Positions 3,398-63,821 are shown, counted from the stretch's first letter. The stretch: DNA of 64,000 nt from Candidatus Methanomethylicaceae archaeon GD_Cm_T35_P0_bin.15 (GCA_038801785.1 JAULTD010000001.1:441568-505567); one strand, 5' to 3'. Numbers and translations: made by a program. Notes: a model not told the origin generated them from the sequence alone.

Positions 3398-4150
3398 TCA
3401 TCTGGCGGATATGGCGATGCGCTCCATCTCTTCCCGCTTCTGGACAGCGTAGCTCTTCGCGTCGTGGCTGCCTGCCAGCGCGATCTCGTCCGCAAGGCAC
3501 TCCTCTATCGGCTTGTTGCTGCCGAATGCAGAGTTCCTCGCGGCGTCGGTGATGAACCTGAGCGCCAGGTCGACCCTCCTCTGCGGCGAGGAGTCGACCG
3601 ACTGCGGGTATGAGATGCCGCCGTAGCGGATCCTTGTGACCTCCTCGCGGGGCGCAGAGTTCTCTATCGCCCTGACGAGGACCTGGATCGGGTTCTCCCC
3701 GGTCTTGAGCGCGACCAGCTCGAGGGCAGCGTCAACTATGCTCAGCGCGAGGATCTTCTTACCCCCGTTCTTGCCGGGGCGCATCATGCGGTTGGCCAAC
3801 CGCTCGACTATGTTGACGTCGGCCTTGCCGAACCGCCTGTGCTCGTGCCTGCCGCTCGAGTGGGGGATAAGCTTGGGTTCCACGTCGATGTAACTCTGGA
3901 GGCCCCTGTCCCTCTTCTCTATGTTGGAGACATCCCACTTGCCGAAGAGCTTGATCGAGTCGGAGTAGGATGCGGGCGCCTCAGGCGCGGTTTCGGTTTC
4001 GGTTTCGGTTTCGGTTGCAGTTTCAGGTTGAGACTCGGGCCCGGCCCCTGCCGATTCCGGGCCCGGACCTGACCCGGCTGCTGCCGGGTCCACGGCGGGC
4101 TCGGATCTTGGTTCGGGTTGATTCTCGGGAGTCTTCTCGGACATAATCAT
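3398..4150 (-). CDS. rps7: 30S ribosomal protein S7 with a ~60-aa acidic low-complexity N-terminal extension (..[18 protein letters not shown]..)
   Basis: The C-terminal ~190 aa match archaeal S7 ([15 protein letters not shown]..., ...[13 protein letters not shown]). The extension is encoded by a (GAAACC)n microsatellite at ~3960-4030. Confidence 0.9.
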
Positions 4151-4168
4151 GATACCCCTTTGTGTGCC

Positions 4169-4612
4169 TTACCTCACCGGCTTCTGCTTCTTGCCGGTCA
4201 TCAGCGCCTGGAGGGAGACGCCGTTGATCTTCACCACCTTCCACCTGACGCCGGGCAGGTCTCCGAGCGCCTTACCCATCGGGCCCCCTATGCCCTCGAC
4301 GATTACCTCGTCGTGCTCGTCCGCAAAGTTGAGGGCCCCGTCGCCCGGCAGGAAGGCAGTAATCTGCTTGCCGTTCTTGATGAGCTGCAGCCTGGCGCAC
4401 TTCCGGACGGCGCTGTTGGGCTGCCTGCTCTCGACGCCCACCTTCTCGAGGACGATCCCCCTGGCCTGGGGCGCCCCCTCCAAGGGGTCAGCCTTGACGT
4501 CGAGCTTCAGCGCCCTCCGTTTGAACTGCCTCAGGCTCCAGCGGAACGCCTTCTTCTTCTCGGAAAGCTTCCTCCCGGCAAGCAGACCTCTAGGCGATTT
4601 TGAACCTGCCAT
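4169..4612 (-). CDS. rps12: 30S ribosomal protein S12
   Basis: 147 aa from the internal ATG ([10 protein letters not shown]...). Conserved '[28 protein letters not shown]'. The longer ORF upstream of that Met is R/P-rich and judged non-coding. Confidence 0.92.
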
Positions 4613-4774
4613 TAACCTACACCTTGATGCTTTTTTGGATAATGCTTCACCGATATTTAAGGTTCTCGCCGGGGAGGGGGCATCAATCATGGGGGCGGTC
4701 TTGGGTGGGCAGGGGCCCCTGGCCTGACTGCCCCGCAACTCCGGCAGATACTGAGTCTGGCTCACGTCGAGGCG

Positions 4775-5446
4775 TTATTTCGTGGCGCCGTAGACTGCGA
4801 AGTTATAGTACTTCCATAGTATGTCGGGGTTCTTGAACCCGCTCTCCCCGAGGCGCCGGAGGTCTTCGAGGAGGACAACAGGCCGGTCCTCGCGCCGGTA
4901 CCTTTCGTTGATTTCGCTTATCTCGCCTGCCGAGAGCGACCGGCTGAGGAAGTCGCGCCACTTCCTCAGGTACAGCTCCTGCCAAGGGGCGCTGCTCGCC
5001 AAGAAGATATCAGCGTTGAGGAATGCGCCTCCATCCCTCAGAGCGCCGTATACCTTGGCAAATAACTGCTGCCGGCCCCCTACCTCAAGGTGGTGCAGCG
5101 CCAGGGAGGATACTACCGCATCGTACTTTGCGTCGAAGCTGTATTCCGACAGGTCCTTGAGCACGTAGGAGGCCTTGCCTTCGCCGAGTTTGCTCCGGCA
5201 TATCTCCAGCATCCTTTCGGAGATGTCCAGGCAGGTAATGTTGGCGTTCGGGAATCTCTTCCTGATCATCAGCGAGAGGTTGCCGGTCCCGCTCCCGAGG
5301 TCGATGACGTCGATCCCCTGCGTGCGGGGGAATGGCACCGCCGACACCAGAGCCTCCAGCATCTCCCGATAATGCGGAATGGTTTTTGTGACCGCGGCGT
5401 CAAAGCCGCTTGCTTCCCCGTTGAAGTGGGCCCGGACGGCATTCAT
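4775..5446 (-). CDS. Class I SAM-dependent methyltransferase inserted between nusA and rps12
   Basis: Motif I 'VIDLGSGTGNLS' and motif II 'ITCLDISERML'. Start chosen at MNAVRAHFNG; an alternative start lies at 5491. The upstream part of the 294-aa ORF is low-complexity. Confidence 0.75.
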   Translation of the reverse strand: MNAVRAHFNGEASGFDAAVTKTIPHYREMLEALVSAVPFPRTQGIDVIDLGSGTGNLSLMIRKRFPNANITCLDISERMLEICRSKLGEGKASYVLKDLSEYSFDAKYDAVVSSLALHHLEVGGRQQLFAKVYGALRDGGAFLNADIFLASSAPWQELYLRKWRDFLSRSLSAGEISEINERYRREDRPVVLLEDLRRLGESGFKNPDILWKYYNFAVYGATK

Positions 5447-6094
5447 CCGTTTCTTGCTGTCAGGGTCCCGGCATGCAGCTGTCATAACCATTCTTCCATG
5501 CGGGCGGCTTATAAGGGTCGGGGGCCGCCTGCTTGCCAACAGCGTTTTTGGCGTTGGGGACGGCCGCGCGTCTCCTGTCCGGGTCGGGGTGTTTGGCATG
5601 CTCAGGACGCCCCCGCGCGCTTGCGTGCTCCCCTTTACCCGGGGCTCGATCTTCAGCATCAGCCGGCAGGGAACGGCTTCGTCCGGAGGAGGCGGACGCT
5701 GCCCTTTCCGTACCTGCAGGGCGCGAGCTCCTCCCGGAACTCGCCGGTTGCGGGGGCGCGGGGCAGAAGCAGATGTGGCTCCTGAACGCGGCGGGGCGGC
5801 AGGTCGCCGTCCAGCTTAAGGGCATCCGGTAGCTTACCGCCTCCTCCGCGCCGGGCGCCGACTCCCGGAAGGTCTGCCGTCTCTCCCCCAGTATCTCCCG
5901 GACGTCTTTGGCACCATGCTGGTTGTGTAGTGGATGGGAAAGTCCCGGAGGCAGGAGGGCATAGACGGGTACACCGCCCAGTCCCCCAGAGCCGCAGAAA
6001 ACCTGTAGTATTCGGGGCGGGCGCAGCGGCGCTGCGGCCGTTATCCGCAAATCGCAAAGCAAGCCAAGCACACTGGCTTCGGGGGAGGGCGTAT

Positions 6095-6827: not shown

Positions 6828-8381
6828 TCATGCGCCCTCCTTGAATCTCATGAAAAGCTCCACGATTCCGGTGCCCAGCGGGATAGGCTGTCCAACGATC
6901 ACGTTCTCAGTTACTCCTTCGAGTGCGTCCTCTTCTCCATGTGACGCCGCATCCAATAAATGCTTTACGGTCACCTCGAAGGCCGCCCTCGCCAGGACGC
7001 TCGACTTTTCGCCGCTGACCCCGTGCCTGCCAATCTGCCTTATCCTCCCCGTCGAGGTCATGAGGTCGGCCACGAGGATTACGTGGCGCACATCCACATC
7101 GAGACCCTGCTGGTCCAGCACCTGGAAGGCCTCCCTGATTATGGCAGACCTGGCCGCCTCGATGCCGAGGACCTCGGCTATCTCCGAGATGTTGTTGGTG
7201 TATATCCTCGTGAGGTCGATCCCCTTTATGGTCAGGGTGGTCGCCAAGTTCGAGCCGTCGGTGTGGAGGACGTACTCGTCGCCCTCCTTCTGGATGAGCA
7301 CCCTCTTCACCCCCTTTATCCCCTTGAGGCGGAGGTCCAGGATCCGCTCCCTGAGGCGCTTGATCTTGTCGACCGTGACGACCTCGGGGATAATCGTGAG
7401 CCGGTTCCCCTCTATCTCGACCTTCCCGACCTTGAGCTTCTCTATCGACTTGGCGATAAAGTCGGTGCTCAGCCCCTTGTCGGCGGCTATCTCCTCGTCG
7501 ACGTCCACTATGACGGAGCCGTTGACCATATCGTACTCGATGCTCCGGGCCACGTTCTCCACGGCGATCCTCTCTATCCGGGCGACGACCTCCTTCGCCT
7601 TCTCGAGGCTGTGCTTGTGCTCCTCGTCGAGGTAGATGGTCATCGTCGGGGTCGAGGGGCTCCTGCGGGCGTCGACGATCTCTATGAGGCGGGGGAGGCC
7701 GAGGGTGACGTTCAGCTCCCTGACTCCCGCATAGTGGAAGGTCCTCAGCGTCATCTGGGTGCCGGGCTCGCCGACCGACTGTGCGGCGACGGTGCCCGCG
7801 GCCTCGCCTGGCTCCACCAGCGCCTTGGTGTACGCCCTGCAGACCTCGTCGACGACGGCCCTGGTCTGCGCCTCGTCGAGTTCCATCGCGGAGAGCTTCT
7901 CCCTCAGCTGGTTGATTAGGCTCTCCGGGAGGGGCCTGTCGAGTCCGTCGAGGACGGTCTCGAGCGGGGTCTTGGCCTTGGGGGGCTCCCCGGCGGCTTC
8001 GGCTTTAGCTTTGGTCCCGGCCCCGGTCCCGGAGGCGGGGGCGGGGGCGGGGGCGGCGGAAGCAGCCTCCTTCGCCGCCCTGGTCTTGCCGCCGGCCTTA
8101 GGTTTGGGCCTCTTTGCGGCCGCAGCCGGATTGGGCTTGCCAGCCTTCGGCTTGGGCTTGACGCCCTTGGCCCCGGCGCCAGCGGATTTGGCGGCGTCGC
8201 CGGGGGGGAGCGCCTCTCCTCCCCCCTCGACCTCTTCCAGCTCCGTCTCGATCTCTTCGTCGTCTACTTCCTCGAGGTCGGCATCGCCATCAATATCGGC
8301 ATCAGCAGCGATATCGGTGTCGGTGTCGGTATCAGTATCGGTATCAGTCTCTATCTCTTTGTCTATCTCGTTGTCGCTCAT
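6828..8381 (-). CDS. rpoA2: DNA-directed RNA polymerase subunit A'' with a ~140-aa N-terminal low-complexity extension (acidic DT-repeat, then a K/P/A-rich basic stretch)
   Basis: The core from '[13 protein letters not shown]' to the C-terminus matches archaeal RpoA''. Its ATG overlaps the rpoA' stop as ATGA (8378-8381), which supports the long N-terminus being real. A (GATACC)n repeat at ~8290-8350 encodes [11 protein letters not shown]. Confidence 0.9.
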
Positions 8382-11059: not shown

Positions 11060-11119
11060 CTTTCTCTCATCTCGCTCCTTTCACTATTGTTACAGCTGCC
11101 GGTATCAGTGCCGGCACCA

Positions 11120-11215
11120 CTGCTGATGCGGGCGCAGGTGTAGGCGAAGGTGCAGGCACAGGCACATGTACAGGCATAGGTGCAGGCATAGGCATAGGTA
11201 CAGGTGCAGGTGACA
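11120..11215. repeat. Hexanucleotide (RYAGGY) tandem repeat array of ~13 units in the 161-nt rpoB-rpoA' spacer
   Basis: 'gcaggt gtaggc gaaggt gcaggc acaggc acatgt acaggc ataggt gcaggc ataggc ataggt acaggt gcaggt'. Confidence 0.9.
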
Positions 11216-11220
11216 AGGCT

Positions 11221-14556: not shown

Positions 14557-14559
14557 ACC

Positions 14560-14650
14560 TTTTCCTTTTGCTCTTCCCTTCTCCTTTTTCCTTCTCCTTC
14601 TCCTTCCCTCTTTCCTCTTTCCTCTCCCGTCCCCCCAGCCGCCCGAACCT
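14560..14650. repeat. ~90-bp homopyrimidine(+) tract between rpoH and rpoB
   Basis: 'ccttttccttttgctcttcccttctcctttttccttctccttctccttccctctttcctctttcctctcc'. Confidence 0.9.
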
Positions 14651-15034: not shown

Positions 15035-15171
15035 TGGTCCCGCCCGCCGGACTTGAACCAGCGACCACCCGGTATTTGCCAGGCTGGCCCGGGGACATGC
15101 ACCGCCGAAGGCGAATTCCCCCGGTCGACCGAAGTCTACAGCCGGGCGCTCTACCACTGAGCTAGGGCGGG
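15035..15171 (-). tRNA. tRNA-Tyr (anticodon GUA) with a ~60-nt intron 3' of the anticodon; CCA encoded
   Basis: Cloverleaf reconstructed by hand on the minus strand. Acceptor stem CCCGCCC/GGGCGGG with C1:G72 and A73, which are archaeal Tyr identity elements. D-arm GCTC-AGTGGTA-GAGC. Anticodon stem CCCGG/CCGGG with loop CTGTAG|intron|A. T-arm GCTGG-TTCAAGT-CCGGC. Confidence 0.75.
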
Positions 15172-16544: not shown

Positions 16545-16680
16545 GGGCGCCCGGCGGCGGCTTCAGAGTCAGAGGAAGAGCCAGAGCCAGGGTCAGAGCC
16601 AAGGTCAGGGTCAGGGTCAGCGCTGGCGCCGGCGTAAGCATCAGCGGCTACGGCAGTGGCAGCGTAAGCGTCAGCGGAAG
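16545..16680. repeat. GC-rich hexamer/nonamer microsatellite (GTCAGRGCC-like) in the htrA/transporter spacer
   Basis: 'gagccagagccagggtcagagccaaggtcagggtcagggtcagcgctggcgccggcg...'. Confidence 0.8.
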
Positions 16681-30287: not shown

Positions 30288-30328
30288 ATATAACGTCGTG
30301 ATAGAGTGATTACTTCGTTTACGCTGAT

Positions 30329-38430: not shown

Positions 38431-38460
38431 GTTTGTAGATTAAATAAGTTTTCCCACCGT

Positions 38461-39642: not shown

Positions 39643-39689
39643 CCCTAGAACGATCTGACTCGATCGGCTCTAGTCATGACCTCGGCGCT

Positions 39690-39900: not shown

Positions 39901-39997
39901 TCAATCTACATTAGTAAGCGTACGTTTTTGAGCATAACCTTCAACAAAAAGATTTCTCAAGAAGGTCTTTTATCAATAGGGGCACCAAACTATAGTT

Positions 39998-41002: not shown

Positions 41003-41050
41003 GGTTATACGATTGTAGACGCGATATTACTTAAGCACGAAATGATCGTT

Positions 41051-44226: not shown

Positions 44227-44236
44227 ACGAACCTCC

Positions 44237-48799: not shown

Positions 48800-49735
48800 T
48801 CAGCTCCTCCGCCACAGTGGTAATGTTGTAAGTGTGGCAATCAGTGTTATTAAGGCTAGTGAGCCGGCCTGCGTCGACGCCGCGGCGTGGAGTACGGCGA
48901 GCACCAGCTTTGCGTCATCGAGCGGCGCCCTCGGCAGGTGCGACTGGTCGATAATCACCTGCCTGCTCCCGTCGAGATTAACCAGCCTCCCGGCTGCTAG
49001 GGAGTTGCCGTCCACGCCGGCCATGCTGTTTATGATTATGCTGGGGTCTGCAACCGCTATCACGCAGCCGTCCCCCAGCTTCTGGTACCCTGCCACCGGC
49101 AGCGGGCCGCTCGGGTCGCCGGCAGACCTTGCAGAGTTCCCGTCCGTGTCGAGGAAGCTGAACTCCGATGACCTTACGATGACGCTTACGGAGCCCCCGC
49201 TGACTGTGAGTGACGTCGCATGGTTGAGGGCGATGTCCCCGGTCCCGTTCAGGGGGTATGAGAGGTCGCTGGCCCTCGGGAACATCGCGTTCCGGTAGTT
49301 GAATATGGGGTCCATCAGGCGCTCGCCGGTGAACCGCATCTCCGCCCCCAGATATTCGAGCACCTGGTTCCCGTAGCCATAGTCGTCCATAATCAAAAGG
49401 ACGCCCCCCTGCACGACGAACTGCCTGATCGCGGATAGGTCGCTCCCGTTCAGCGGGACGTACGGGATCACTATGAGGGTCGAGTTGCCCGGATCCGCCG
49501 GCAGGTCTGCCAAGGAGGTTATGCCCGCAGCGTTGTTCCGTTCCCTGAAGTCGGTCAGCCCGTTCCAGAACGGGTTGTCAATGCGGAAGTCGCCCGTGGG
49601 GGGGAAGTACCAGACGAGCAGGGCTAGCGACATCACTACAGCAAGCGTGAGGGCGGGTAAGAGCTTACGAGCCTCCAATTCCAAGGCGCTCCGCCACATA
49701 CCTTGCGTAATCGTCCGCCGCTGAGAGGTCATCAA
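48800..49735 (-). CDS. DUF4350-like domain protein with N-terminal TM anchor; start uncertain (the 49735 start overlaps the upstream gene by 71 nt)
   Basis: 'LIVIPYVPLNGSDLSAIRQFVVQGGVLLIMDDYGYGNQVL' resembles DUF4350/GldG-like. Frequently found with MoxR-DUF58. Confidence 0.5.
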   Translation of the reverse strand: MMTSQRRTITQGMWRSALELEARKLLPALTLAVVMSLALLVWYFPPTGDFRIDNPFWNGLTDFRERNNAAGITSLADLPADPGNSTLIVIPYVPLNGSDLSAIRQFVVQGGVLLIMDDYGYGNQVLEYLGAEMRFTGERLMDPIFNYRNAMFPRASDLSYPLNGTGDIALNHATSLTVSGGSVSVIVRSSEFSFLDTDGNSARSAGDPSGPLPVAGYQKLGDGCVIAVADPSIIINSMAGVDGNSLAAGRLVNLDGSRQVIIDQSHLPRAPLDDAKLVLAVLHAAASTQAGSLALITLIATLTTLPLWRRS

Positions 49736-51755
49736 CGTTGGGCGCCTCGCAGGAGTAGAGGGACTTTTCGGCCAGGTACGTCAGGTTCCTGAAAGCAAGC
49801 GCGGTCCCGTTCAGCTTGGGCTCGGCGGCGCGCAGGAACTCGTTCAGGGTCATGTCCGGGGACATCTGGACCCCGGCGAACGAGCTTACGGACCGGACGG
49901 CAGAGAGGTACGATGCAATTACCTTCTGGCGCCCCTGGCTCAGCCCGGACGCCCTGACGGCGTTAGCCATGCTCACCGCGGGGATGTGCGCCATGATCTG
50001 GCCCATGCCTTCTGGCGCGGAACCGTCGGCCGGAGCCTGGGACACCACGGGACCGGCTGGGGAGCCGGAGTCAGAGCCGGCGCCAGAGCCAGAGTCGTTC
50101 TCCCCGCCCAAGCGCCTGACCCTCCTAAAGAAGAGCAGGCCTGCGAAGGCAAGCACGGCAGTACCTGCAGCAACGACCGGGTTCACTATGAATATGGTTG
50201 CTTTGGCATCGCCGTCGGCGTACCATGGCTCCGCAGGATATACGGAGACGGATACCGTATGGTAGCCCGCGATCCAGAGGGAGGGGGGCAGCTCAAAGCC
50301 CACGGAGAACGAGCCGTTCTCCGCCAGGAGGGTCCTGGAGCCGCCGGTCATATTGACGGTCACGGTCGCGTTGGTCAGGGGTGCGGTGCCGGCATAGGCG
50401 CTCCCCGATATCACCACCGTCGACGGGATGAGGGCGAAGGGAGGGCACGAGAGGGAGACGTTGACGGGCACCCTCTCCACCCTCAGGGTTCTGGAGGCGC
50501 TTCCGCCGGCATAGACGCCGCTGGGGCTCACCTCCGCGTAAAGATAATGGCTGCCCGTGGCCGCCGAGGGATCGATCGTGAAGGTCGTCACGAACGAGCC
50601 GTCGGGGCCGCTTGCAGGGGCGTCCAGGAGCGAGCCGTCCAGGTATATGCGGATAGACCTCCCCTCCTGCGGCATCCCTCCAGAAGTCACCTTCCCCGTT
50701 ACTGTAACGTCTTTCCCGGGATAGGATACGGGCGGCGATACCAGCTCAACGGAGGTATTGTTGAAGAGGAGCGTGAGCACCAGCGGCTCGCTCATGGAGG
50801 AGCGGTACAAGCTGCCGTCGTCTGCCGACGGGATGTAGAGGGCGAAGAGGTATGCCGGGCTCTCGTAGAGGAACGGGATGGCGAGGAGGCAGGTGTAGGA
50901 GCCGTCCGGGCCGGTCACCGCGGATACGGCGCTCTCGCCGTTGAACAGGACCGTTATGCCCTTCCCGCCGAGACCGGTGCCGTTGCAGGTAAGGGAGCCG
51001 GATAGCTGGACAGAGCCTCCAACCCAGACCTCGCTGGCGTTCGAGGTGAGCGTGAGGGAGGTCGGAGACGCGTAGGTCGGGTTGGTTCCATTGATCCCGC
51101 CAGAGCCGTTAGTACCATTAGTCCCGCCAGGCACGGTACCGTTCTGCCCGCTAATCCCGCTCAGCCTCTCGCGGTAAGCCAGGAACAGCCGCAGGTAATA
51201 GTCGATAAGATCTTCAACGCTCTGGACGCTGCCCTCCAGCTCGGCGTAGGCCATCCTCGCAGGGCTGCCTTCCGGCGTCTTGGGCACGCCCAGGCTGTTG
51301 CCGATGGAGACGGTCGTGGACTTTACGTCCTTCAGCTGGATCTTCGCCTTCGCGATGGCGATGGCGGCGTCGTGCAGGGTCTGGTTGGCGCCCTGTGCGT
51401 TGTTCTGGTCCAGCAGGCGCGAGGTCTCGTCCGCCAGCCTCTCGATCTCCTCCACCTCGTCGCTCACCCTGGAAGTCTGCTCGGTATACTGCCCGAAGAG
51501 GGAGCGCACGTTCGAGGGGAGGGAGATCAGGTTGTACCTGGCGAGCAGCTCCCGGATATGGTCGTAATCGCTCTCGGGTATCAGCCTGAAGATGTCCGCA
51601 TAATAGGAGAGGAGCGAGTAGGCGTCCATTATGTTCGGGGCGGTGGACGGCTCCTCGTGGGGGGTAAAGTCGAGCTGGGCCCTGACGGGCGCCTGCAGAC
51701 CGGTCAGCAGCATGAGCATCAGCGGGGCTACCAGGAAGGGGTATCTCGCAGTCAA
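49665..51755 (-). CDS. Large cell-surface protein: signal peptide, coiled-coil region, Asn/Gly/Thr-rich linker, Ig-like beta repeats, TM anchor and a short cytoplasmic DUF4129-like tail
   Basis: N-terminal 'MTARYPFLVAPLMLMLLTGLQAPVRAQ'. 'GTNGTNGSGGINGTNPT' linker. C-terminal TM 'VVAAGTAVLAFAGLLFF'. 696 aa. Confidence 0.6.
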   Translation of the reverse strand: MTARYPFLVAPLMLMLLTGLQAPVRAQLDFTPHEEPSTAPNIMDAYSLLSYYADIFRLIPESDYDHIRELLARYNLISLPSNVRSLFGQYTEQTSRVSDEVEEIERLADETSRLLDQNNAQGANQTLHDAAIAIAKAKIQLKDVKSTTVSIGNSLGVPKTPEGSPARMAYAELEGSVQSVEDLIDYYLRLFLAYRERLSGISGQNGTVPGGTNGTNGSGGINGTNPTYASPTSLTLTSNASEVWVGGSVQLSGSLTCNGTGLGGKGITVLFNGESAVSAVTGPDGSYTCLLAIPFLYESPAYLFALYIPSADDGSLYRSSMSEPLVLTLLFNNTSVELVSPPVSYPGKDVTVTGKVTSGGMPQEGRSIRIYLDGSLLDAPASGPDGSFVTTFTIDPSAATGSHYLYAEVSPSGVYAGGSASRTLRVERVPVNVSLSCPPFALIPSTVVISGSAYAGTAPLTNATVTVNMTGGSRTLLAENGSFSVGFELPPSLWIAGYHTVSVSVYPAEPWYADGDAKATIFIVNPVVAAGTAVLAFAGLLFFRRVRRLGGENDSGSGAGSDSGSPAGPVVSQAPADGSAPEGMGQIMAHIPAVSMANAVRASGLSQGRQKVIASYLSAVRSVSSFAGVQMSPDMTLNEFLRAAEPKLNGTALAFRNLTYLAEKSLYSCEAPNVDDLSAADDYARYVAERLGIGGS

Positions 51756-54636: not shown

Positions 54637-55131
54637 CTATATGGCGCCTTCCTCGGGGGTCAGGATGTTCACCCTCAGCGCCACGGTCTCGTCGGTGCAG
54701 AGACGCTCGAAGAGCTCGTCATATTCTTTCCTCACGGACTTCGTCTCGAAGTACCGGTTGTATTCGATGACCCGGTCCCGGCACCCGATACCCGAGTCGT
54801 TGAAGAAGTCGCGGGTGATGGGCAGTATCTTGTCAGGGCGGTTGCACGGGATGAGGAAGAACTCCTCGACTATCCGGTCGGTCTCGAGGACCCTGTAGCA
54901 GATGATGACGCCTTTCTTGGCGTAGATGCCGCCGTTGCCGTTACCGCTGCAGTTGCCGTTACCGCTGCAGTTGCCGTTACCGCTGCAGTTGCCGTTACCG
55001 CTGCAGTTGCCGTTACCGCTGCCGTTGACTCTGCCGCTGTTGGCGCTACACCCCAAAGAGTTGCCGTTTCCACTCGGGCAGTTGCTCTCAACCTCGGTCA
55101 TTTCCCTCTCACCTTGCTCCTGTTGCTCCAA
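54637..55131 (-). CDS. Hypothetical protein with an N-terminal Cys/Asn/Gly hexapeptide tandem repeat (NGNCSG x4-5) and a ~100-aa C-terminal domain of unknown function
   Basis: An 18-nt perfect tandem repeat at 54937-55026 encodes the repeat. An (AATCC)n pentamer repeat sits immediately upstream (55143-55185). Confidence 0.45.
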   Translation of the reverse strand: MEQQEQGEREMTEVESNCPSGNGNSLGCSANSGRVNGSGNGNCSGNGNCSGNGNCSGNGNCSGNGNGGIYAKKGVIICYRVLETDRIVEEFFLIPCNRPDKILPITRDFFNDSGIGCRDRVIEYNRYFETKSVRKEYDELFERLCTDETVALRVNILTPEEGAI

Positions 55132-55176
55132 TTCCTTGGTTTAATCCAATCCAATCCAGTCCAATCCAGATTCAAT

Positions 55177-55545
55177 TCAGTTCGTTATGACGAATACCCA
55201 CCTGCTCATGCGGGAGAGCATGTCGGTCCCGAGCCAGAAGATGTATTGGTCGCTGTTGATCCACTTCCTCACTGCAGGGAACACCCTCGCTGTCGCGTTC
55301 CTGAGCATACCCAGCGCCCTCTCCATCCCTCTGCGGAATATCTTCTGGCCTATGGTCAGTCCAATTCGCTCAGCTACGCTGCCGATCATCTCGACGAGCC
55401 TCTGGTTCACTATCTGTCCCCGCAGCCTCGCATATGATAGAGCAGCCCTAAAGAGGCCCCGCTGGACAGGAGGGAGCCTGCGCACGGTTCCGTTCCGCGA
55501 TCCCCGTCTCCAGAGTGATAGTATTGCAGCGTAGCTGATAGTCAA
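55177..55545 (-). CDS. Hypothetical protein
   Basis: 122-aa ORF in operon context. No motif recognised. Confidence 0.3.
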   Translation of the reverse strand: MTISYAAILSLWRRGSRNGTVRRLPPVQRGLFRAALSYARLRGQIVNQRLVEMIGSVAERIGLTIGQKIFRRGMERALGMLRNATARVFPAVRKWINSDQYIFWLGTDMLSRMSRWVFVITN

Positions 55546-55764
55546 CCTGGTGCATCTCGACTTTTTGTTATGGATTGCTCAGAATTTAAAAGCCTTGTGA
55601 AGGGCACTTTTGTTCCACACTAACCTGCATGACTTTCTTTGAACGATCGTTAAACTGTAGAATTTTTGTGTGTATTGCTACGGAGGCAGTAAAAAAGAGC
55701 GTCCGCGCTTCCGGGCAGACGTGGAAAGGGGGGCAGTATTTAATATTGACTGGAGACTATCTGA

Positions 55765-56508
55765 CTACCTCTTGACCACTCTTTTATAGATCCCCAAGAG
55801 TAGCCCGGCGACTGATTCTGGCATATGCTCTCTAGGGAGGCTCTCCAACACAGTTCCATCGTACCGAACTACCTTGCATCCGGATGCCAAAGCTTCAAGT
55901 GCGGCCTTGCTGGTATCATTTATCAGCCTGCCGCCAATTGATTTCACGTCAATGTAGTACTCGTACTCTGAGAAGATCTGAGGGAGGCGGGAGTGGGGTA
56001 TCGGCGATGCAAACCGGTCATGGAGCGTCAGGCTGAGACCAAGTTCTTTTGCGTACTGCCGGGCTAGATCATCAGCCCCGTAGGAGAAAGAGAAGGCGGT
56101 TGCCGGCACATGCTGCCGCCTATCGTAGAAGAGCCAAGTCTCTATCGGGATTGGAAGATAGATCGTACCTTCAGGGGCCCCTTCTAATAGATCCCGCGTG
56201 GAGACGAGGATAGCATCGGCATCGCGGTGATATGCGCGCTTCTCTCCCCACATGCCGCGGATGTCCGACCCGTGGTAGTGAAAAACAACAGGCTTACTAG
56301 GGGCTAGGGATTTAATTGCGCGGCCGATGCCTTCACAGGAATGTATGTGAGTTATATCATAGAAGGGGGCCAGGAGGAGGGATGCGATGCGGAAGAGTGT
56401 TAAAGAGGGAAGACAGAGGGATCCCTGATCATCCCAAGGAGGTTTCTTAGAGGCTAGAACAGTAGATTCGACCGAGCCCTTGAGAATGCGCGAAAAGATC
56501 GAGGCCAC
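55765..56508 (-). CDS. Glycosyltransferase-like protein (GT-B C-terminal half-like)
   Basis: 'SKAALEALASGCKVV' resembles the GT1/GT4 C-terminal nucleotide-sugar binding region. 247 aa. Confidence 0.4.
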   Translation of the reverse strand: MASIFSRILKGSVESTVLASKKPPWDDQGSLCLPSLTLFRIASLLLAPFYDITHIHSCEGIGRAIKSLAPSKPVVFHYHGSDIRGMWGEKRAYHRDADAILVSTRDLLEGAPEGTIYLPIPIETWLFYDRRQHVPATAFSFSYGADDLARQYAKELGLSLTLHDRFASPIPHSRLPQIFSEYEYYIDVKSIGGRLINDTSKAALEALASGCKVVRYDGTVLESLPREHMPESVAGLLLGIYKRVVKR

Positions 56509-56537
56509 CCCTGCGGTATCGCCGACGTGAAGGATCC

Positions 56538-57131
56538 TTAAACCGAAACCCTCCTTTGGATTATGTGGAGCGCCCTAGGTTCGACTTTGGGTTTACTGCC
56601 AACCGATGTGAGTTCTGGTCCTTCCTCTTCTAGGAGGTGTACACCTCTACTGAAGCATTTGGAACGCTGAAAAAGATCGTCTGAATCGGTCTTAGGGGGG
56701 CGGTTCTCCCAAGCATAAGCCACCTCTGTCCAGCCAGCCAAGTTTTCGAGGATCGCGTTGTAGGCGGTATCGCCGAGGATATGGGAGGGCAGATCGAGGC
56801 AGAGCACTGCTTCGGTCTCGATGCATGTGGGTTTGACGGCGCCTTGGCATATGAGTTCCCCTTCCTTGAGCTTGGCACGGTTGCGCTCGATTATTGTCGG
56901 TGATATGTCGATGCCAACATATCTCCTGCAGGCGGGGGAATCGCTGAAGCGGAAGGTGAGGTCCCCATAATTGACATCCGAGATTTCCTCGGGAGTACGG
57001 TCAAGGATACAGGACCTCTTCCTCAAGCCGATAGTGCCGTGGGAGCCTTGACCGGAGTTGCCGCCTTCACGGTAGCGCTTTTCCCAATAGCTCGTTTTTC
57101 TCCCACCATCAATTTGGGCATACCTCTGCAA
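56538..57131 (-). CDS. Probable SAM-dependent methyltransferase
   Basis: N-terminal 'SYWEKRYREGG' and 'YVGIDISPTIIERNRAKL' (post-motif-I block). Confidence 0.4.
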   Translation of the reverse strand: MQRYAQIDGGRKTSYWEKRYREGGNSGQGSHGTIGLRKRSCILDRTPEEISDVNYGDLTFRFSDSPACRRYVGIDISPTIIERNRAKLKEGELICQGAVKPTCIETEAVLCLDLPSHILGDTAYNAILENLAGWTEVAYAWENRPPKTDSDDLFQRSKCFSRGVHLLEEEGPELTSVGSKPKVEPRALHIIQRRVSV

Positions 57132-57438: not shown

Positions 57439-59163
57439 TCACTCCTCAGCGCCGCCGCCCGCCAGCCGGGCCTCCACCTCGGGGGCATACATCTTGGGAC
57501 CGTCCCGGATCAGCTTCAGCTCGTACGCCATAACCGGCTTCACCACGGTCTTCAGGAGTCCGGACTTTCCAAGCATCAGGTCGGCGTTCTCCAGATCGAC
57601 GCCCCTCACCGCGCCGACGATGGGCGCCACGGTGAGGAAGATGGCCAGGAAGGACACTGCCCCCACGGCGAGGTTGAGCACATTCCCCAGCTGGACGAAG
57701 AGGTGGACGGCCACCACCGGGGCGGTCGCTATCCCTGAGGCAACGTATATCCTCCAGATCTTCCCCATGTTCAGGCCCAGCCCGTACCTGTTCCCCGCAA
57801 GGTAGAGGCCGTACACGGTATAGGCGAGGCTCGCCAGCAGGTAGATTATGATCGTCCCGGTAACGCCGATGAGCTGGGTCGCCAGCGGGGCGAGGGGGAT
57901 GAAGAGACCTGCGCGGAGCGCGTGCATCCTCAGGGTGAGCCTCGTGGCCCCTATCCCGTTGAACATGCTCTCGAGGACGGAGTAGCCGATCCCGGTGAAG
58001 AGGAAGAGGACGGTGTAGAGCGAGAAGTAGAAGGGCGCGAGGGTGTAGCTCGCCCCGTACAGGATATACACCAGCTCGTCGGAGAATATTATAGCCATGG
58101 TGGAGACGGGGACGAGGATGAGCGAGCCGTACCTGACCGTGAGGTCGAAGAACTTCTGAAGCTCCGAACGTTCCTTTGAAGGGTCTATCCTCGAGAAGGC
58201 GGGCACGAGCGCAAGCGCGATCGCATAGTTGAACATGGTCAGGATCGCGGAGAGGCTGATGGTCGCGTTGTAGTTGCCGATATCGAAGTTGGAGACGAAG
58301 AACGCGAGGAGGAGGAACTGGTACTGGTTGACCAGCATGATCAGGATCTGGCAGAAGTAGAGCGGGAACCCGTAGATGATCATCGGCTTGAGGTCGCAGA
58401 GGCCGTAGTGGAAGCGGGCGCGGAAGCCATAGCCGCCCTTAGGCGGCGGGTCCTGCGCCTCTGCCTGCAGGCTGCCGGGCGGAGACGCCTTGAGGGTCCT
58501 GAGGTACCGATCCACCCAGTAGAGGAGGGTCAGCCCGACGATCGCCCCGGCCAGGTAGCCCAGCACGTGGCCCGCGACCGCGCCTGCGACCCCGAAGCCC
58601 AGCAGTATGAGGAGGGGCGCCGTGACGACTTTGGTTATTGACATGAAGAGGTTGATGAGGACGCTCCTGCCCATCATGTTCAGCCCCATCAGTGCGTAGA
58701 CCCCGGGGGAGGTGATGGACTGGAGGAGGATTGTGATAGAGGCGATGCTGACGAGGAAGCTCATGTCGGGGCGGTTCAGGAGGTAGGTGGCGAAGAACCA
58801 GGAGAAGGTGAAGACTAGGAGGAAGACGAGAACCCCTATGAGGAACCTGAGCCCCATGCCGGCGCGGATGGTCCGGGCGATAAGGCTCTCGCGGCCGTCC
58901 GACCGCAGCTTCGCGGGGAACCTTATGAGCGCCTGGTCCAGGCCGAGCCCCATCAGGTAGTTCATTATGAGGGGTACGGTCAGCGCCAGGGTGTAGAGGC
59001 CGTAGCCGTCGGGGTCGAGGAGCCTGGCGATCAGGATGGAGGCGATGGCGGCGAGGACGTTGGTGGCGGCGTCCCCGATCATGAGGGCGAAGGCCCCCCT
59101 CGCAGAGTCTTCCGCTATGGAGGTAAGCTTCGTGCTGATGCCGTTGATCGCCGGCTTTGCCAT
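57439..59163 (-). CDS. Wzx-like oligosaccharide flippase (MOP superfamily)
   Basis: Start set at the internal ATG (MAKPAINGIST...). The 82 codons upstream are R/P-rich. ~14 TM segments. Confidence 0.6.
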   Translation of the reverse strand: MAKPAINGISTKLTSIAEDSARGAFALMIGDAATNVLAAIASILIARLLDPDGYGLYTLALTVPLIMNYLMGLGLDQALIRFPAKLRSDGRESLIARTIRAGMGLRFLIGVLVFLLVFTFSWFFATYLLNRPDMSFLVSIASITILLQSITSPGVYALMGLNMMGRSVLINLFMSITKVVTAPLLILLGFGVAGAVAGHVLGYLAGAIVGLTLLYWVDRYLRTLKASPPGSLQAEAQDPPPKGGYGFRARFHYGLCDLKPMIIYGFPLYFCQILIMLVNQYQFLLLAFFVSNFDIGNYNATISLSAILTMFNYAIALALVPAFSRIDPSKERSELQKFFDLTVRYGSLILVPVSTMAIIFSDELVYILYGASYTLAPFYFSLYTVLFLFTGIGYSVLESMFNGIGATRLTLRMHALRAGLFIPLAPLATQLIGVTGTIIIYLLASLAYTVYGLYLAGNRYGLGLNMGKIWRIYVASGIATAPVVAVHLFVQLGNVLNLAVGAVSFLAIFLTVAPIVGAVRGVDLENADLMLGKSGLLKTVVKPVMAYELKLIRDGPKMYAPEVEARLAGGGAEE

Positions 59164-59237
59164 GGCCCCTTGCGCCTGCCGACGTTGATCCTCCGGGCTC
59201 TGCTGCCCCGGATCCTCAGGCCGCGGTTTCATAGCAA

Positions 59238-59450
59238 TCATGCGGCCCCGAAAGACGTCACTATGAGGTATGACCTCAGGAGGGCGGCGGCGACGAACAG
59301 GAGGGCAACGGCGATCGCGATCATCCTGAGCCGCCCCCTGTCGATGCAGATGCTGGAGCCGTACTCTGACACTATCTCGTATGTGGCGAGGAGGATCAGC
59401 GCAGTCCATGTGAGCAGGAGGTTCGCGTCGAAGGGGGTAAGGGGGATCAT
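59238..59450 (-). CDS. Small 2-TM membrane protein preceded by a GGAGG Shine-Dalgarno sequence and an ~85-nt polypurine leader
   Basis: 70 aa. 'ggaggcaagg ATG'. Hydrophobic helices. Confidence 0.4.
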   Translation of the reverse strand: MIPLTPFDANLLLTWTALILLATYEIVSEYGSSICIDRGRLRMIAIAVALLFVAAALLRSYLIVTSFGAA

Positions 59451-59576
59451 CCTTGCCTCCTCTCTCCTTTCCCTTTCCCTCTCCCTCTCCCTCTCCCTTC
59501 CCCTCTCCCTTCCCCGTCTTCTTCCTCTTTCTCTTCCCCCTTCCTGTTGGCGTTCATATCGTATCCCGGATCGGGG

Positions 59577-60038: not shown

Positions 60039-61069
60039 GGCGCACCTGCAGGCCTGAACATCCGGAACGTTGCCACTATAGTCTTGCCGTCGGGCAGCAG
60101 ACCGCTCCTCTCTATGGATACGTGCTCCCCGGAGGACCTGGCCAGGGCGAGGGCGATCGAGCTGCAGAGGGGGCATCCCAGCGATCCGCAGATGTAGGGC
60201 AGGCTGCACGCCTCCCTGCAGAGGCCGCTGTATACCGATTTTTTGAGACGCACGGTCGCCGTCCCGCCGCTAATCGTCATACGGGTATCCCCGGCGATCT
60301 CTAGGTCCCTGAATAGCTCCTCCAGCCTCCCGGGGAGGGCGGCCAGTTTCGTCTGGGAGAAGGGCGCCCCCATCTCGTCCTCCAGGAGGTTGGCGAGGGC
60401 GAGCCCCGGCGGGGCCAGACAGATACCGGGGGGGTCCCCGGCCACCGAACTCCCGCCGGCGGCCTTTGCAGGGGGGGCGGGCGAGGCGGGGACGAAGACG
60501 GTCCCGCCGCGGATGTCCCGCGCGTGGGCCGGCGGGAGGTAGACGGCGGTTCCGTTGAGATTAAGGTCTGCCAGCATCCGGTCTATGTCCACCAGAAGGG
60601 GGAGCGTGCTGGCGTCGAGCAGGATGGCCTTGGCGTATCTCCCCGGCATCACTAGGAGGAGGACCGCCCCCCAGAAGACGAGGCCCAGTCCGATCATCGC
60701 ATGGAGCGAGGAGGCGGTCAGCGTGGAGATGGCGAGGGCAGTGGCGCCTGCTAGGATGAGGATCGCCGCGGCGGCCCGTGAGGGCCTGCGCCTCGACTTG
60801 CGGAGGGCGAGCTTCAGGGCGGACCTCTCCCTCTCCAAGCGGTCTATCCGCTCCTGCAGGCTGGCTGTGGCAGCCGATGTGTGGGCGTACTCGTGGTCTG
60901 CGACCCGGGGGCCGCCAGCGAGCCGGGGCCGTGATTGCGTTGATGGCGGCGGTGTTGGTGTTGTTGGTGATGGTGATGGTGATGGTGATGTTTGTGGTGA
61001 TGGCGGTGTTGGTGTTGTTGGTGATGGTGGCTGCTGCCCTCTTGTCTCCGGACCCGGTTCCGCAGTCAT
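60035..61069 (-). CDS. Membrane protein with a Pro/Thr/Ser-rich N-terminal repeat, a coiled-coil, one TM and a C-terminal Cys-cluster domain
   Basis: 'TTPTPPSPQTSPSPSPSPTTPTPPPS' is encoded by a (GGTGDT)n repeat at ~60940-61030. C-terminal 'CREACSLPYICGSLGCPLCSS'. Confidence 0.5.
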   Translation of the reverse strand: MTAEPGPETRGQQPPSPTTPTPPSPQTSPSPSPSPTTPTPPPSTQSRPRLAGGPRVADHEYAHTSAATASLQERIDRLERERSALKLALRKSRRRPSRAAAAILILAGATALAISTLTASSLHAMIGLGLVFWGAVLLLVMPGRYAKAILLDASTLPLLVDIDRMLADLNLNGTAVYLPPAHARDIRGGTVFVPASPAPPAKAAGGSSVAGDPPGICLAPPGLALANLLEDEMGAPFSQTKLAALPGRLEELFRDLEIAGDTRMTISGGTATVRLKKSVYSGLCREACSLPYICGSLGCPLCSSIALALARSSGEHVSIERSGLLPDGKTIVATFRMFRPAGAP

Positions 61070-61082: not shown

Positions 61083-62300
61083 CTACGCCCCCCTGCCGTA
61101 AAGCCTGAAGTAGAGCGAGTAGAGCCTGTTGACCAAAGGGTTGTCCTTGGAGCACCGGAACTTCCATGTCGCCCAGTCGCAGGCGGCGCTGAGGAGGCCC
61201 CTGCGGACCAGCCTCGCCTCGCGGTTTATCTCGTATTTGGAGGTCCACTGGAACTTGTATGGCTCGTTCCCCCGCAGCAGGTCGTATGTCTCGAAGCCCC
61301 TCCTTATGTACCTGTCAAGGGTCATCAGGACGGTCACGTTCCCTACGGCGTAGCGGGAGAACGCCGGGTCGAACCCGCTCAGGTAGGACGATGCCCTCCG
61401 GCCCATCTCAAAGTTGTACTCTGCCGAGACGGGGATCCCGTCCGCGGTCAGGAAGTACAGCCCGAGCTGGTCCTTCTCGGCAAAGCGCCTCGCGACGTCG
61501 AGGTGGAACTCCCGGAAGCTCGCCTCCTTGAACTCGCCCGGCATGCCCTTCCCGATCCACCGCATCTGGTGGAGCTTTATGAAGGCGTCCATCGCCTCGG
61601 TCAAGGACATGTCCATCTCGTCGTACCTCTTCAGCTCGACGGCATGGTCGTTCCTGATCCGCCTCGAGAACCTGTTGAGGTTGTGCCTCCACCTCCCGTC
61701 CAGCCCTTTCATCAGGGCGTCAAAAGAGCGAGGGAGGGGGATGTAGGGGCAGACGTTGCATACGCGCTCCCTGAGGCTCAGCCTGCCGGAGAGGTCCGAG
61801 CCAAGCGACCTGATGGAATCGAGCGTCGTGGAGGAATCCGGCAGCTCGTTCAGCTCGATCCAGTCGCAGTCCTCAAAGTTGTCGAGGAGGTAGCCAACTA
61901 TCGAGCGGAGGCACCTGTACTCGTCCCGGACTATGATGAAGTTGTGGTAGTCGGAGATGGGCGACCCCAAGAACTGTATCTTCCTGATCCTGCCCAGCCC
62001 CGGAAGGCGGTACCGCGTCTTCATCATGGGCGCCAGGGCCAGGGGCTTCCCGTCCTCCTGGACCATGAGGACGACCATCTTATTGCCGGAGCCGTAGTGC
62101 CTCCACCATGCGTCCACCCAGTCCCAGGTCAGGAATATGTTGTCGCGGAGGGGGCTGGCCGCGAGCAGCGACGGCCACGTCCCCTCGAGGGAGGCGAGGT
62201 CGTTGAACTCGGTGACCCGCAGGCCTGAGGGCTTGCTCACAACGCCCTGCTCGGTGGTCATCTCAGAAAGCCCGGGTGATCGCCCCGGTCCTGCGGGCAC
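61083..62300 (-). CDS. GNAT-fold acyltransferase, CelD/BioF2-like (Acetyltransf_6) family
   Basis: 405 aa. The two-lobed FemAB-like architecture resembles the cellulose-biosynthesis CelD-like proteins found in polysaccharide loci. Confidence 0.5.
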   Translation of the reverse strand: MPAGPGRSPGLSEMTTEQGVVSKPSGLRVTEFNDLASLEGTWPSLLAASPLRDNIFLTWDWVDAWWRHYGSGNKMVVLMVQEDGKPLALAPMMKTRYRLPGLGRIRKIQFLGSPISDYHNFIIVRDEYRCLRSIVGYLLDNFEDCDWIELNELPDSSTTLDSIRSLGSDLSGRLSLRERVCNVCPYIPLPRSFDALMKGLDGRWRHNLNRFSRRIRNDHAVELKRYDEMDMSLTEAMDAFIKLHQMRWIGKGMPGEFKEASFREFHLDVARRFAEKDQLGLYFLTADGIPVSAEYNFEMGRRASSYLSGFDPAFSRYAVGNVTVLMTLDRYIRRGFETYDLLRGNEPYKFQWTSKYEINREARLVRRGLLSAACDWATWKFRCSKDNPLVNRLYSLYFRLYGRGA

Positions 62301-62354
62301 GGCAGATGCGGCGCTGCCGCCCCGGCTGTGCGCCCGGTGCCATCCCCTGCATGC

Positions 62355-63152
62355 TCAGTCTAGGCATGGCTTCCCGCCCCCCCCGCCCTCCATCAGCCGG
62401 ACGAGGGAGAGGTACTTCTCCTTGGGGCACCTGAAGAACGCCTCGCAGTACTCGACATTGCTCCCGGCACCCATGGAGCGGTAGAGGTTCAGCCCGCGTA
62501 TCTTGGACGGGTAGTCTATGACGCAGACCTGGCTCCTGTGCTCTCCTATGGCGCGCACCTTTATGTCCATCAAGCCGCTTATGTCCACCAGCACGTTGGG
62601 GAGGAGCGGTGACCAGACCTCGTACCCGTAGTAGTCAGCGTCCCCTTCCCACCTCCCCAGGGCCTCAGCCACTATCCTGATCGTCGCCATGTGGTCGGGG
62701 TGGTTGTCTATGAAGAAGGGCGCGTAGACCGACCTCGGACGGTACTCGTCGAGGACCCTGAGGACGGCGCCGACTGACGAGCTGTCGCACCTGAGCGAGG
62801 CGTCGGGAAACCCTAGGAAGGTGGCCTCTTCGCTGCCGATGCCCAGGACGCGGAGCGCCGAGAGGGCCTCTTCCCGCCTTATCCCCGCTAGCTCGTCGGG
62901 CCTGAACGCATCGTTCCCCATCCCCCCGTCCGTCATGTAGACGACCCTGACCCGGGACCCGCTCCTAGCGTACCTGTGCATCGTTCCCCCGCAGCCTATG
63001 ACGTCGTCGTCCGGGTGGGGGGAGACGACGAGCACTCTGCCGCGATCCGAGTCGGGGTCCTCCAGCCTCGCGACGGTGGTCTGCCCGCGGACGGCTGAGA
63101 GGAGGGCGATGATGCCGGCCTTCGTCCTTGCGAGCCGGTCTATGCCAAACAT
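62355..63152 (-). CDS. PIG-L/LmbE-family N-acetylglucosaminyl deacetylase
   Basis: 'VVSPHPDDDVIGCGGT' zinc-binding signature. 'DNHPDHMA'. Confidence 0.88.
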   Translation of the reverse strand: MFGIDRLARTKAGIIALLSAVRGQTTVARLEDPDSDRGRVLVVSPHPDDDVIGCGGTMHRYARSGSRVRVVYMTDGGMGNDAFRPDELAGIRREEALSALRVLGIGSEEATFLGFPDASLRCDSSSVGAVLRVLDEYRPRSVYAPFFIDNHPDHMATIRIVAEALGRWEGDADYYGYEVWSPLLPNVLVDISGLMDIKVRAIGEHRSQVCVIDYPSKIRGLNLYRSMGAGSNVEYCEAFFRCPKEKYLSLVRLMEGGGGGKPCLD

Positions 63153-63821
63153 GATCAGATGATCAGCCCCCTGGCCGGTCGGCGGCTGCCGTCTTGCTCA
63201 TTGCTCATTACGCAATACTCATCCCTCATCCTTCATCGCTCATCCCTCATCCCTCATCCTCATCCTCATCCTTATCCTTATCCTCATCCTCATCCTCATC
63301 GCTCATTGGGCAGCCCGCGCCGGCCGGCTCCCCTGCGGCGGATGGAGGGCGCCCGTATCGCTGAGCACTCTGCCGCGAACGACGCGATCCGCCAGCTCAG
63401 GGTAGCAGATCCCGTCCGGTTGTACCCGCCGGTGCGATCGCCTTCCCCATGCGCCCTTCTGCTCCCCCCGCCATCCATCCCCGTCGACCCCGCGGATGCT
63501 GGCGGAGCCGGCGTCGGGGGCGATGTCAAGGGTGATGCGGGTGCCGGCATACGTTCTGATGCGGATGATGACACGGGCAGGGGCAGGGGCGCAGACGCGG
63601 ATCCCGGCGGCAGTACTGGCGATGCCGGCACAGCTACGGGTACCTGCGATTCCCTTCCGTTCTCTGATGCCGTCACCGGCTTTCCTTCCTGCGCCTCCGC
63701 CGGCGCCCCCCTCAGGGTCCCAGGCACTGCCCCTGCTCCCTCCGCCGCGACCCCTCCCGGCTCTGCCCCCTGCGGACCCTTCCCAGCCCGCCGGGGCGCC
63801 GTCATATGTGTGCGGTTTTCA

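Follow-up and report, generated by a model that had tools for sequence, protein, structure and literature searches.

Some prokaryotic genomes are rich in simple-sequence repeats (SSRs) with units of 5-11 nt, and within genes the units are multiples of three nucleotides (3n) in length (Mrazek, Guo & Shah 2007, PNAS 104:8472, as summarised in PMC4679880). This class underlies the variable-number tandem repeat (VNTR) and multiple-locus VNTR analysis (MLVA) typing loci in Burkholderia, Mycobacterium and Xanthomonas. SSRs are hotspots of insertions and deletions (indels) and are concentrated at protein termini because termini tolerate indels (Lin & Kussell 2012, PMC3315296). Archaea overall are not enriched in short tandem repeats (STRs) over simulation, and among kingdoms the Thermoproteati are reported to show the lowest STR density (PMC12699852). 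Here we analyse a set of short tandem arrays in a 64,000-nt stretch of DNA (the window) from Candidatus Methanomethylicaceae archaeon GD_Cm_T35_P0_bin.15 (JAULTD010000001.1:441568-505567), which carries on its minus strand the archaeal rpoH-rpoB-rpoA'-rpoA''-L30e-NusA-S12-S7-EF1a-S10 cluster, with RpoB encoded as a single unsplit protein. We consider it likely that these arrays are independent SSRs which expand and contract by slipped-strand mispairing and are kept where indels are tolerated.

The window has a GC content of about 62% and contains a 16-kb island at about 40% GC. By RpoA' identity, its closest public genomes are three metagenome-assembled genomes from the Methanomethylicales/Methanosuratincola group (86% for L001, 83% for L002 and 79% for L010), and an RpoB cluster mate (at least 90% identity) is labelled Candidatus Methanomethylicus sp., a genus placed in the Thermoproteati, Thermoproteota. 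Arrays were detected by running Tandem Repeats Finder (TRF) on the window, together with direct reading and lag-6 autocorrelation. Those found by TRF have units of 5, 6, 7 or 18 nt, repeated head-to-tail in 2.7-13.8 copies with 71-100% matches.

The original prediction, made by reading the sequence, had called such a density of repeats unusual for archaeal core regions; it named a shuffled-codon null as the test of that statement and proposed a comparison of copy numbers between isolates or metagenomic reads. For the null, codons were permuted within the 58 genes and the spacers were dinucleotide-shuffled in 200 runs, none of which reached the observed values: 24 TRF arrays with a score of at least 40 against 5.0±2.0 in the shuffles (maximum 11), 11 period-6 arrays against 0.12 (maximum 1), and 1239 repeat bases against 171±72. 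The biological control consisted of 139 loci from other archaea, each of at least 8 kb around rpoA', in which period-6 arrays occur at a mean of 0.03 and a maximum of 0.83 per 10 kb. The window holds 2.86 per 10 kb in the orthologous rpo region (1-21 kb), roughly 100-fold the mean and over three-fold the maximum of those loci, and 2.11 at 45-64 kb. High-GC control loci were not enriched in period-6 arrays, and there was no positive dependence on GC. Perfect unit-6 STRs amount to 14.6-24.6 bp/kb in the window, and the 139 loci average 5.3 and reach at most 15.2; this measure follows our own definition, is not comparable with published bp/kb figures and is valid only relative to these loci. Since the array density lies above both the codon-shuffle null and the orthologous archaeal loci, we take it to be real and unusual, as had been predicted. 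The low-GC island contains no array of any period, which may mean either that arrays need time to accumulate or that they depend on the native sequence composition.

Scans with RpoA' against public genome and metagenome contigs reached best protein identities of 86% and 73%, respectively, too distant for copy-number tests; same-species contigs were instead reached via exact look-ups of small conserved proteins and their cluster mates. Three contigs from Logan SRR25293830 (L161, L164 and L174) are 100% identical to the window, and a second population is represented by JGI 3300001095 (contigs L162, L165, L168, L171, L172, L173 and L175). Low-coverage representatives of this species also occur in ERZ795032, ERZ795051, ERZ27257464 and 3300010347. 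Over 43.8 kb of alignment the JGI strain differs from the window by 116 single-nucleotide polymorphisms (SNPs; 0.27% divergence) and, outside the boundary of the divergent island, by five indels, four of which are whole-unit changes inside arrays. In the proposed copy-number comparison these four arrays differ by -2, -1, -1 and -5 units: the JGI strain is shorter by 12 bp in the (GAAACC)n array of S7 (4013-4024), by 5 bp in an (AGAAG)n array (3379-3383, accompanied by a SNP at 3357), by 6 bp in the rpoB-rpoA' array (11169-11174, with six SNPs inside the array and one more at 11101) and by 30 bp in a (GATGAG)n array (63271-63300). The fifth indel, of 3 bp and GCC type, falls in a PASPAPP stretch. 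With 2.1% of the aligned bases lying in arrays, the probability of finding at least four of five indels there is 9e-7. The arrays are also hotspots of substitution, with a SNP density five-fold higher than elsewhere (1.2% versus 0.25%; Fisher 3e-5). As a result of the two-unit change, S7 is 248 or 244 aa long in the two populations (P0121/P0122), and every difference between the two proteins lies within the tail.

Compared with six relatives, each array is found within a lineage-specific insertion at a gene boundary. The rpoB stop (11221) is separated from the rpoA' ATG (11059) by a gap of 161 bp, mostly (CCTGYR)14, an insertion that parts the conserved ...GAGAGGGTGTGA stop region precisely from the ATG. 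The corresponding gap is -17 to 12 bp in the six relatives, and in a wider set of 147 archaeal loci it has a median of 2 bp, a 95th percentile of 16 and a maximum of 73. The array itself (11127-11212, minus strand) is reported by TRF as (CAGGCA)x8.7-10.7 and reads (CCTGYR)n on the gene strand, in about 14 units. The rpoH-rpoB gap, -4 to 7 bp in the six relatives, measures 103 bp here and is filled by a GA-rich tract (14558-14627, minus strand; TRF periods 6, 7 and 13) that is homopurine on the gene strand and shows no strain variation. The S7 gene (3398-4144) encodes a 61-aa N-terminal tail before IKLFGKW versus 4-12 aa in the relatives; the S7 domain defined by Pfam covers residues 87-250, and homologs align only from residue 64-66. 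The S7 array (3988-4029, minus strand; TRF (CGGTTT)x6.8, 86% matches) reads (GAAACC)n on the gene strand and produces a 12-residue ET run in the N-terminal tail of the protein. The AGAAG pentamer (3339-3380; TRF (AGAAG)x5.6 at 3353-3380, perfect) marks the start of the S7-EF1a spacer, which is pyrimidine-rich on the gene strand.

The RpoA'' gene (6828-8381) encodes 517 aa, compared with 385-398 aa in basal relatives, which lack the N-terminal tail, and with 441-499 aa in Methanosuratincola-like RpoA'', whose tail is rich in K/A/P/E. In the window version such a tail also has an acidic segment, (TD)6-xD, together with (AP)n and KPKPKAG repeats. The TD array (8278-8375, minus strand) occupies the extreme N-terminus and consists of (ACCGAY)n, encoding (TD)6 and then xD units, plus a 12-mer EIDN/EIDK repeat; TRF reports (TATCGG)x8.7 at 8294-8348 with 73% matches, and its length is unchanged in the JGI strain. 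TRF also recovers the KPKPKAG repeat, 21 nt in period, at 8127-8168 of the tail, and a (GCCCCC)n array encoding (AP)n (8030-8056, minus strand), which has two SNPs (8033 and 8043) and unchanged length in L168. Homologs align only from residue 140-151, with the exception of the RpoA'' of the related species L002, which retains part of the tail and aligns from residue 90. The L002 tail contains arrays of its own, (GAAACA)5 encoding (ET)5 and (AAGGCA)6 encoding (KA)6, and these independent hexamer arrays indicate that array birth at this tolerant site is recurrent. Dipeptide runs are also present in other RpoA'' homologs, with (KP)6 in P0027 and EKEKEK in P0009. The tail as a whole (7962-8381, minus strand; P0001-P0065; L002:12651-12950) is hypervariable, Lys/Ala/Pro/Glu-rich and histone H1-like in Methanomethylicaceae/Methanosuratincola, adding 50-130 aa over the basal relatives. 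Such a basic tail could contact nucleic acid; we found no description of a histone H1-like RpoA'' tail.

Outside the S7-rpoB region, the spacer between a CitMHS transporter gene (stop 16671) and the promoter and start (16492) of an HtrA-like protease gene holds a (YCTGRC)n array (16545-16680, minus strand). TRF finds (TCAGAG)x9.7 at 16563-16620, the lag-6 autocorrelation spans the whole array (0.65, z=9.2), and the array is identical in the JGI strain. A 696-aa protein (49665-51755), for which the Pfam scan gave no match, carries a GS linker array (50062-50096, minus strand; TRF (GAGCCA)x5.5) that reads (GRCTCY)n on the gene strand and encodes DSGSGAGSDSGS; this linker directly follows the C-terminal transmembrane helix, and its array is unchanged in length in L171. 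An 18-mer array (54934-55027, minus strand; TRF x5.2, 98% identity) encodes (NGNCSG)n in a small Cys/Asn/Gly-rich open reading frame (ORF) at 54637-55101/55131, where its G+C content at third codon positions (GC3) is 0.84 in frame; L175 has an equal copy number. The 18-mer ORF shows a weak, sub-threshold TrAA12-like Pfam match and adjoins two or three small ORFs (about 160 aa and 70 aa) without a family match (54637-57131, minus strand; L175:3479-5868), and the Logan assembly breaks within the 18-mer, contig L174 starting at 54963. Directly upstream of this ORF is an AATCC pentamer (55143-55181; TRF (AATCC)x5.2 at 55143-55168). A homopurine (GGGAGA)n-type tract detected by TRF (59458-59539, minus strand) lies upstream of a gene for a polysaccharide-synthesis-like membrane protein (57439-59409); neither the pentamer nor this tract shows strain variation.

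Further along, an SP/TP array (60941-61031, minus strand; TRF periods 6, 9 and 27) of (CCATCA/CCAACA)n lies between an acetyltransferase-like gene (stop 61083) and the next gene, would read PPSPTTPTPPSPQTSPSPSPSP in the longest ORF, and has two SNPs and unchanged length in L172. The (GATGAG)n array is a GATGAG/GGGATGA composite (63218-63306, minus strand; TRF (CTCATC)x13.8, 88% matches, 9% indels) with stops in every frame; it is non-coding and lies 66-154 bp upstream of a PIG-L deacetylase gene (62355-63152). TRF recovered all the arrays originally listed except a stretch at 63480-63660, in which it found only (GGGCAG)x2.7 at 63575-63590; with a weak lag-6 match of 46% (z=4.8), this stretch looks like a decayed array. 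The surrounding 63153-63818 (666 bp), in which the JGI annotation of L172 calls no gene, holds both the variable GATGAG array and the decayed hexamer periodicity. Six SNPs relative to the JGI strain fall within about 220 bp of it (63386, 63464, 63545, 63562, 63590 and 63602, the last four inside 63480-63660), and the 666 bp have the appearance of rapidly evolving non-coding DNA ahead of the PIG-L/acetyltransferase pair. Not on the original list were the AGAAG, (GCCCCC)n and KPKPKAG arrays and the homopurine tracts at 14558-14627 and 59458-59539, all five detected by TRF. One further candidate, at 26431-26480, was rejected as a Leu/Ala-rich transmembrane helix with biased codons and no microsatellite. 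No CRISPR-like pattern of 24-48-nt repeats with unique spacers was found by TRF in the window, the arrays being contiguous head-to-tail short units.

Judged from the reading frames, translation is certain for the 18-mer and for the ET, TD/AP and GS arrays, because either no alternative start exists downstream or the array is internal to the ORF. All array periods within ORFs are 3n (6, 18 and 21), and 5- and 7-nt units are intergenic only. The rpoB-rpoA', 16545-16680 and 60941-61031 arrays are open in all frames because their units contain no stop codons. In their proline-rich frames, preferred codons account for 1/25, 13/26 and 0/30 codons, respectively, and the recorded gene products begin downstream of all three. 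We therefore treat these arrays as non-coding, probably so in the case of 60941-61031, for which GC3 is 0.10 and the next gene on record (NCBI/Logan) encodes 267 aa from 60838, with the same start in JGI. The arrays placed inside genes by the original prediction accordingly stand as coding in S7, RpoA'' and the 696-aa protein, and the one at 60940-61030 probably does not.

Three longer readings were considered and rejected. ORF49 (49 aa, 11067-11216, minus strand) exactly fills the rpoB-rpoA' spacer, with a TTG start 4 nt past the rpoB stop and a TGA stop 7 nt before the rpoA' ATG, and would encode (PX)14 followed by a hydrophobic stretch. Its codons (1/25 preferred, GC3 0.33) and the lack of any such recorded product speak against coding, as does the fact that all seven strain SNPs and the indel alter the peptide; if translated, it would be a candidate de novo micro-ORF. 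An N-terminal extension of the HtrA-like protease through 16545-16680 is in frame and has no start codon, the recorded product being 400 aa from 16492. The 198-aa ORF for S12 is an artefact of the longest-ORF rule, with a recorded product of 147 aa from the ATG at 4612.

The arrays had originally been described as a related, GC-rich hexanucleotide family, and neither attribute withstood measurement. The dominant hexamers include AACCGA, CCGATA, TGCCTG, CTGACC, CTCTGG, CCATCA and GATGAG; the mean rotation- and strand-minimised Hamming distance among units is 2.60, versus 2.61 for random hexamers from the same DNA (fraction of the null at or below the observed value 0.50). Array GC is 0.38-0.71, except for (GCCCCC)n, and so not above the local background of 0.62. 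The arrays are independent SSRs, not one related family. A common origin from a mobile or templated element might be read into the shared period of 6 and into an 11-mer, CTGGCTCTGGC, common to two arrays; given units no more alike than random hexamers, and flanks that differ between arrays and hold neither inverted nor direct repeats, we regard such an origin as extremely improbable. Artefacts of assembly or sequencing are a natural concern where every source is a metagenome assembly and one Logan contig (L174) ends within the 18-mer. The window sequence recurs, however, at 100% identity in the independent Logan assemblies, the JGI contigs agree with it apart from whole-unit changes and the 0.27% of SNPs, and the length differences are exact multiples of the unit. 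Moreover, arrays of 27-136 bp, mostly below 100 bp, are unlikely to collapse in assembly, and we give an artefactual source of the arrays or their length differences very little credence. Their codon composition points to the DNA level: G and C are depleted at third positions, with GC3 of 0.1-0.6 in arrays versus 0.85-0.92 in the conserved cores, where codon bias is extreme, and the arrays reuse codons that are rare in core genes (GAA, 12% of its synonymous set, in the S7 array; GAT, 11%, in the TD array). This reuse suggests that the DNA unit was amplified rather than the peptide selected codon by codon.

Under slippage, mispairing of slipped strands in the course of replication or repair would give rise to the arrays, and still alter their length, within one Methanomethylicus-like lineage. 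The arrays would survive only at indel-tolerant sites, namely intercistronic and intergenic spacers, non-conserved N-terminal tails and linkers. In coding sequence only 3n units would persist, giving the dipeptide runs ET, TD, AP and GS, and strains would come to differ in the length of spacers and of the tail on at least one core protein, S7. We favour slippage combined with such a selective filter because the indels are whole-unit, the arrays are SNP hotspots and non-3n units occur only in non-coding DNA. The range from perfect arrays (AGAAG, the 18-mer and four GAAACC units) to the decayed stretch at 63480-63660 suggests a cycle of birth, growth and decay. The arrays could instead be selected functional elements, with acidic or Thr-rich tails tuning ribosome or RNA polymerase contacts and spacers setting distances, Shine-Dalgarno-like tracts or regulator binding, the periodicity being a by-product. 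Consistent with this, the (TD)6 units have equal copy number in the two strains and vary only synonymously; RpoA'' tails, variable in sequence, are retained throughout Methanomethylicaceae; purine tracts rich in GGAG/GAGG stand directly 5' of rpoB and of another gene; and the rpoB-rpoA' insertion moves the ancestral GAGAGGGTG motif away from the rpoA' ATG. On the other hand, no sequence in 15 kb varies more than the rpoB-rpoA' spacer array (six SNPs and one indel in 86 bp), close relatives do without any of these insertions, the units are mutually unrelated, and the rare-codon make-up points to recent amplification of DNA. Nor do the spacers encode a stable RNA structure: the only match in the Rfam gathering scan of the window is a tRNA, and the rpoB-rpoA' spacer RNA folds no more stably than its shuffles (z=+1.03). 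We therefore judge a functional origin of the arrays unlikely. Less likely still is that they are contingency loci, which switch adjacent surface or glycan genes by phase variation. The AGAAG, AATCC and GATGAG/heptamer arrays do lie in 5' intergenic regions, some neighbouring genes are related to surface or glycan functions (PIG-L, polysaccharide synthesis), and the GATGAG array and one pentamer array differ between strains. However, the in-ORF units are all 3n, so that no frameshift is possible; two variable arrays lie within or next to S7 and the RNA polymerase operon, whose genes are implausible on/off targets; and the arrays stand 60-280 bp from start codons, with no identifiable promoter-spacing position.

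Several observations weigh against slippage at tolerant sites as a complete account. The two populations agree in length at ten of the 14 main arrays, the perfect 18-mer and (TD)6 among them, and the term active therefore fits only a subset: the predicted slippage yielding length-variable proteins and spacers is borne out for four arrays, that of S7 being one of them, and not for the other ten. The copy-number comparison covers two populations, both of them metagenome assemblies in which repeat collapse is formally possible. The core units of (TD)6 differ only at third codon positions, which would allow that single array to be constrained at the peptide level instead of being purely neutral. 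Composition suggests that the S7 and RpoA'' tails are probably disordered, as does a low-quality AlphaFold2 model, too poor to be strong evidence, in which residues 1-136 of RpoA'' form coil with a predicted local distance difference test score (pLDDT) of 33-46 (mean pLDDT 52 and predicted template modelling score 0.32 for the whole model). The predominance of hexamers even in non-coding spacers is unexplained by slippage, and enrichment across the genome would be an extrapolation from 64 kb and about 7 kb of flanks. With these points in mind, we infer slippage as the mechanism, near-neutrality of most arrays and disorder of the tails. A more far-reaching interpretation would be that this lineage has a hexamer-biased repeat instability, for example through an altered replication or repair complement, which creates sequence at the boundaries of the most conserved archaeal operon, grows the disordered tails of S7 and RpoA'', and breaks the otherwise universal rpoB-rpoA' stop-start coupling through a rapidly evolving 161-nt microsatellite, possibly retuning subunit stoichiometry; this appears doubtful to us.

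Some other features of the window deserve mention. Long homopurine/homopyrimidine tracts fill intergenic regions at 3115-3340, 14558-14627 and 59458-59539, as well as at L164:4237-4330. On the mRNA strand, those that immediately precede rpoB and the 57439-59409 gene are purine-rich with plentiful GGAG/GAGG motifs, and the S7-EF1a spacer has about 200 nt of pyrimidine; these homopurine/homopyrimidine tracts may be Shine-Dalgarno-rich leaders or H-DNA-forming tracts. Between NusA and S12 sit a gene for a class I SAM-dependent methyltransferase and an adjoining ORF without a family (4775-6057, minus strand), an insertion carried at that position by none of the six relatives. Between the HtrA-like gene and rpoH lies an intron-containing tRNA gene of 134 nt (15038-15171, minus strand; Rfam RF00005, 52.6 bits); unlike Rfam, ARAGORN reported no tRNA anywhere in the window.

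The low-GC island (27800-44260; 37-45% GC versus 62%) contains glycan and polysaccharide biosynthesis genes, among them a Polysacc_synt flippase, several GT4 glycosyltransferases, a deacetylase, a GNAT protein, an aldo-keto reductase and epimerases. In the JGI contig L171 the match to the window extends down to about 44257, past which other low-GC genes take over (ATP-grasp, deacetylase, PHP and GT4; GC 0.38). This shows the island to be strain-variable; it is probably a horizontally exchanged surface-glycan locus. Clusters of two or three SNPs within 2-7 bp are found at 49972-49978, 47450-47451 and 45937-45939, in the genes for the 696-aa, DUF58 and DUF1616 proteins, and may be multinucleotide mutations or micro-conversion tracts.

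These results have several implications. Polymorphic microsatellites are possible even in the universally compact RNA polymerase/ribosomal-protein operon, and a core ribosomal protein, S7, differs in length between near-identical archaeal populations. The arrays illustrate in nature how repeat expansion lengthens protein tails and spacers, and they are ready VNTR markers with which strains of an uncultured methanogen-related lineage can be tracked. The lineage is also an exception to the reported STR poverty of the Thermoproteati (PMC12699852). No new kind of genetic system is revealed by the locus; what is notable about it is the host lineage and the core-operon location.

Among described systems, the intergenic TAACTGA heptamer repeats of marine Beggiatoaceae (PMC4679880) resemble these arrays in forming many short arrays in 5' intergenic regions of one lineage. 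They differ in having one conserved unit, which suggests sequence-specific regulation, whereas here the unit differs from array to array. Dipeptide-repeat linkers and tails, such as the Thr/Asp/Pro/Ser linkers of surface proteins in archaea and bacteria and K/A/P-rich histone H1-like tails, are comparable in that the ET, TD, AP, GS and KPKPKAG runs lie outside conserved folds and that residues 1-136 of RpoA'' have no predicted secondary structure in the poor model available. Unlike those linkers and tails, the present runs are found on the cytoplasmic core proteins S7 and RpoA'', use rare codons and in one case are polymorphic between near-identical strains. The terminal SSR indel hotspots (PMC3315296) share the location of repeats at N-termini and linkers, with indel variability peaking at termini, archaea included. 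However, they are mostly SSRs of 1-4 nt that cause frameshift phase variation, while here in-frame hexamers alter tail length only. Closest of all is the long SSR/VNTR class of prokaryotes, as far as it is described in the summary cited at the outset (PMC4679880). There, heptamers are reported as the most abundant and here hexamers dominate; the present host, moreover, is a Thermoproteati archaeon, and its arrays lie inside the universally tight rpoH-B-A'-A''/S12-S7 operon. Besides a scattered, lineage-specific occurrence, the window nevertheless shows all four defining features of that class that we tested: head-to-tail iteration of a short unit, arrays more numerous than composition predicts, whole-unit polymorphism among strains, and 3n units within genes, other lengths occurring only between them.

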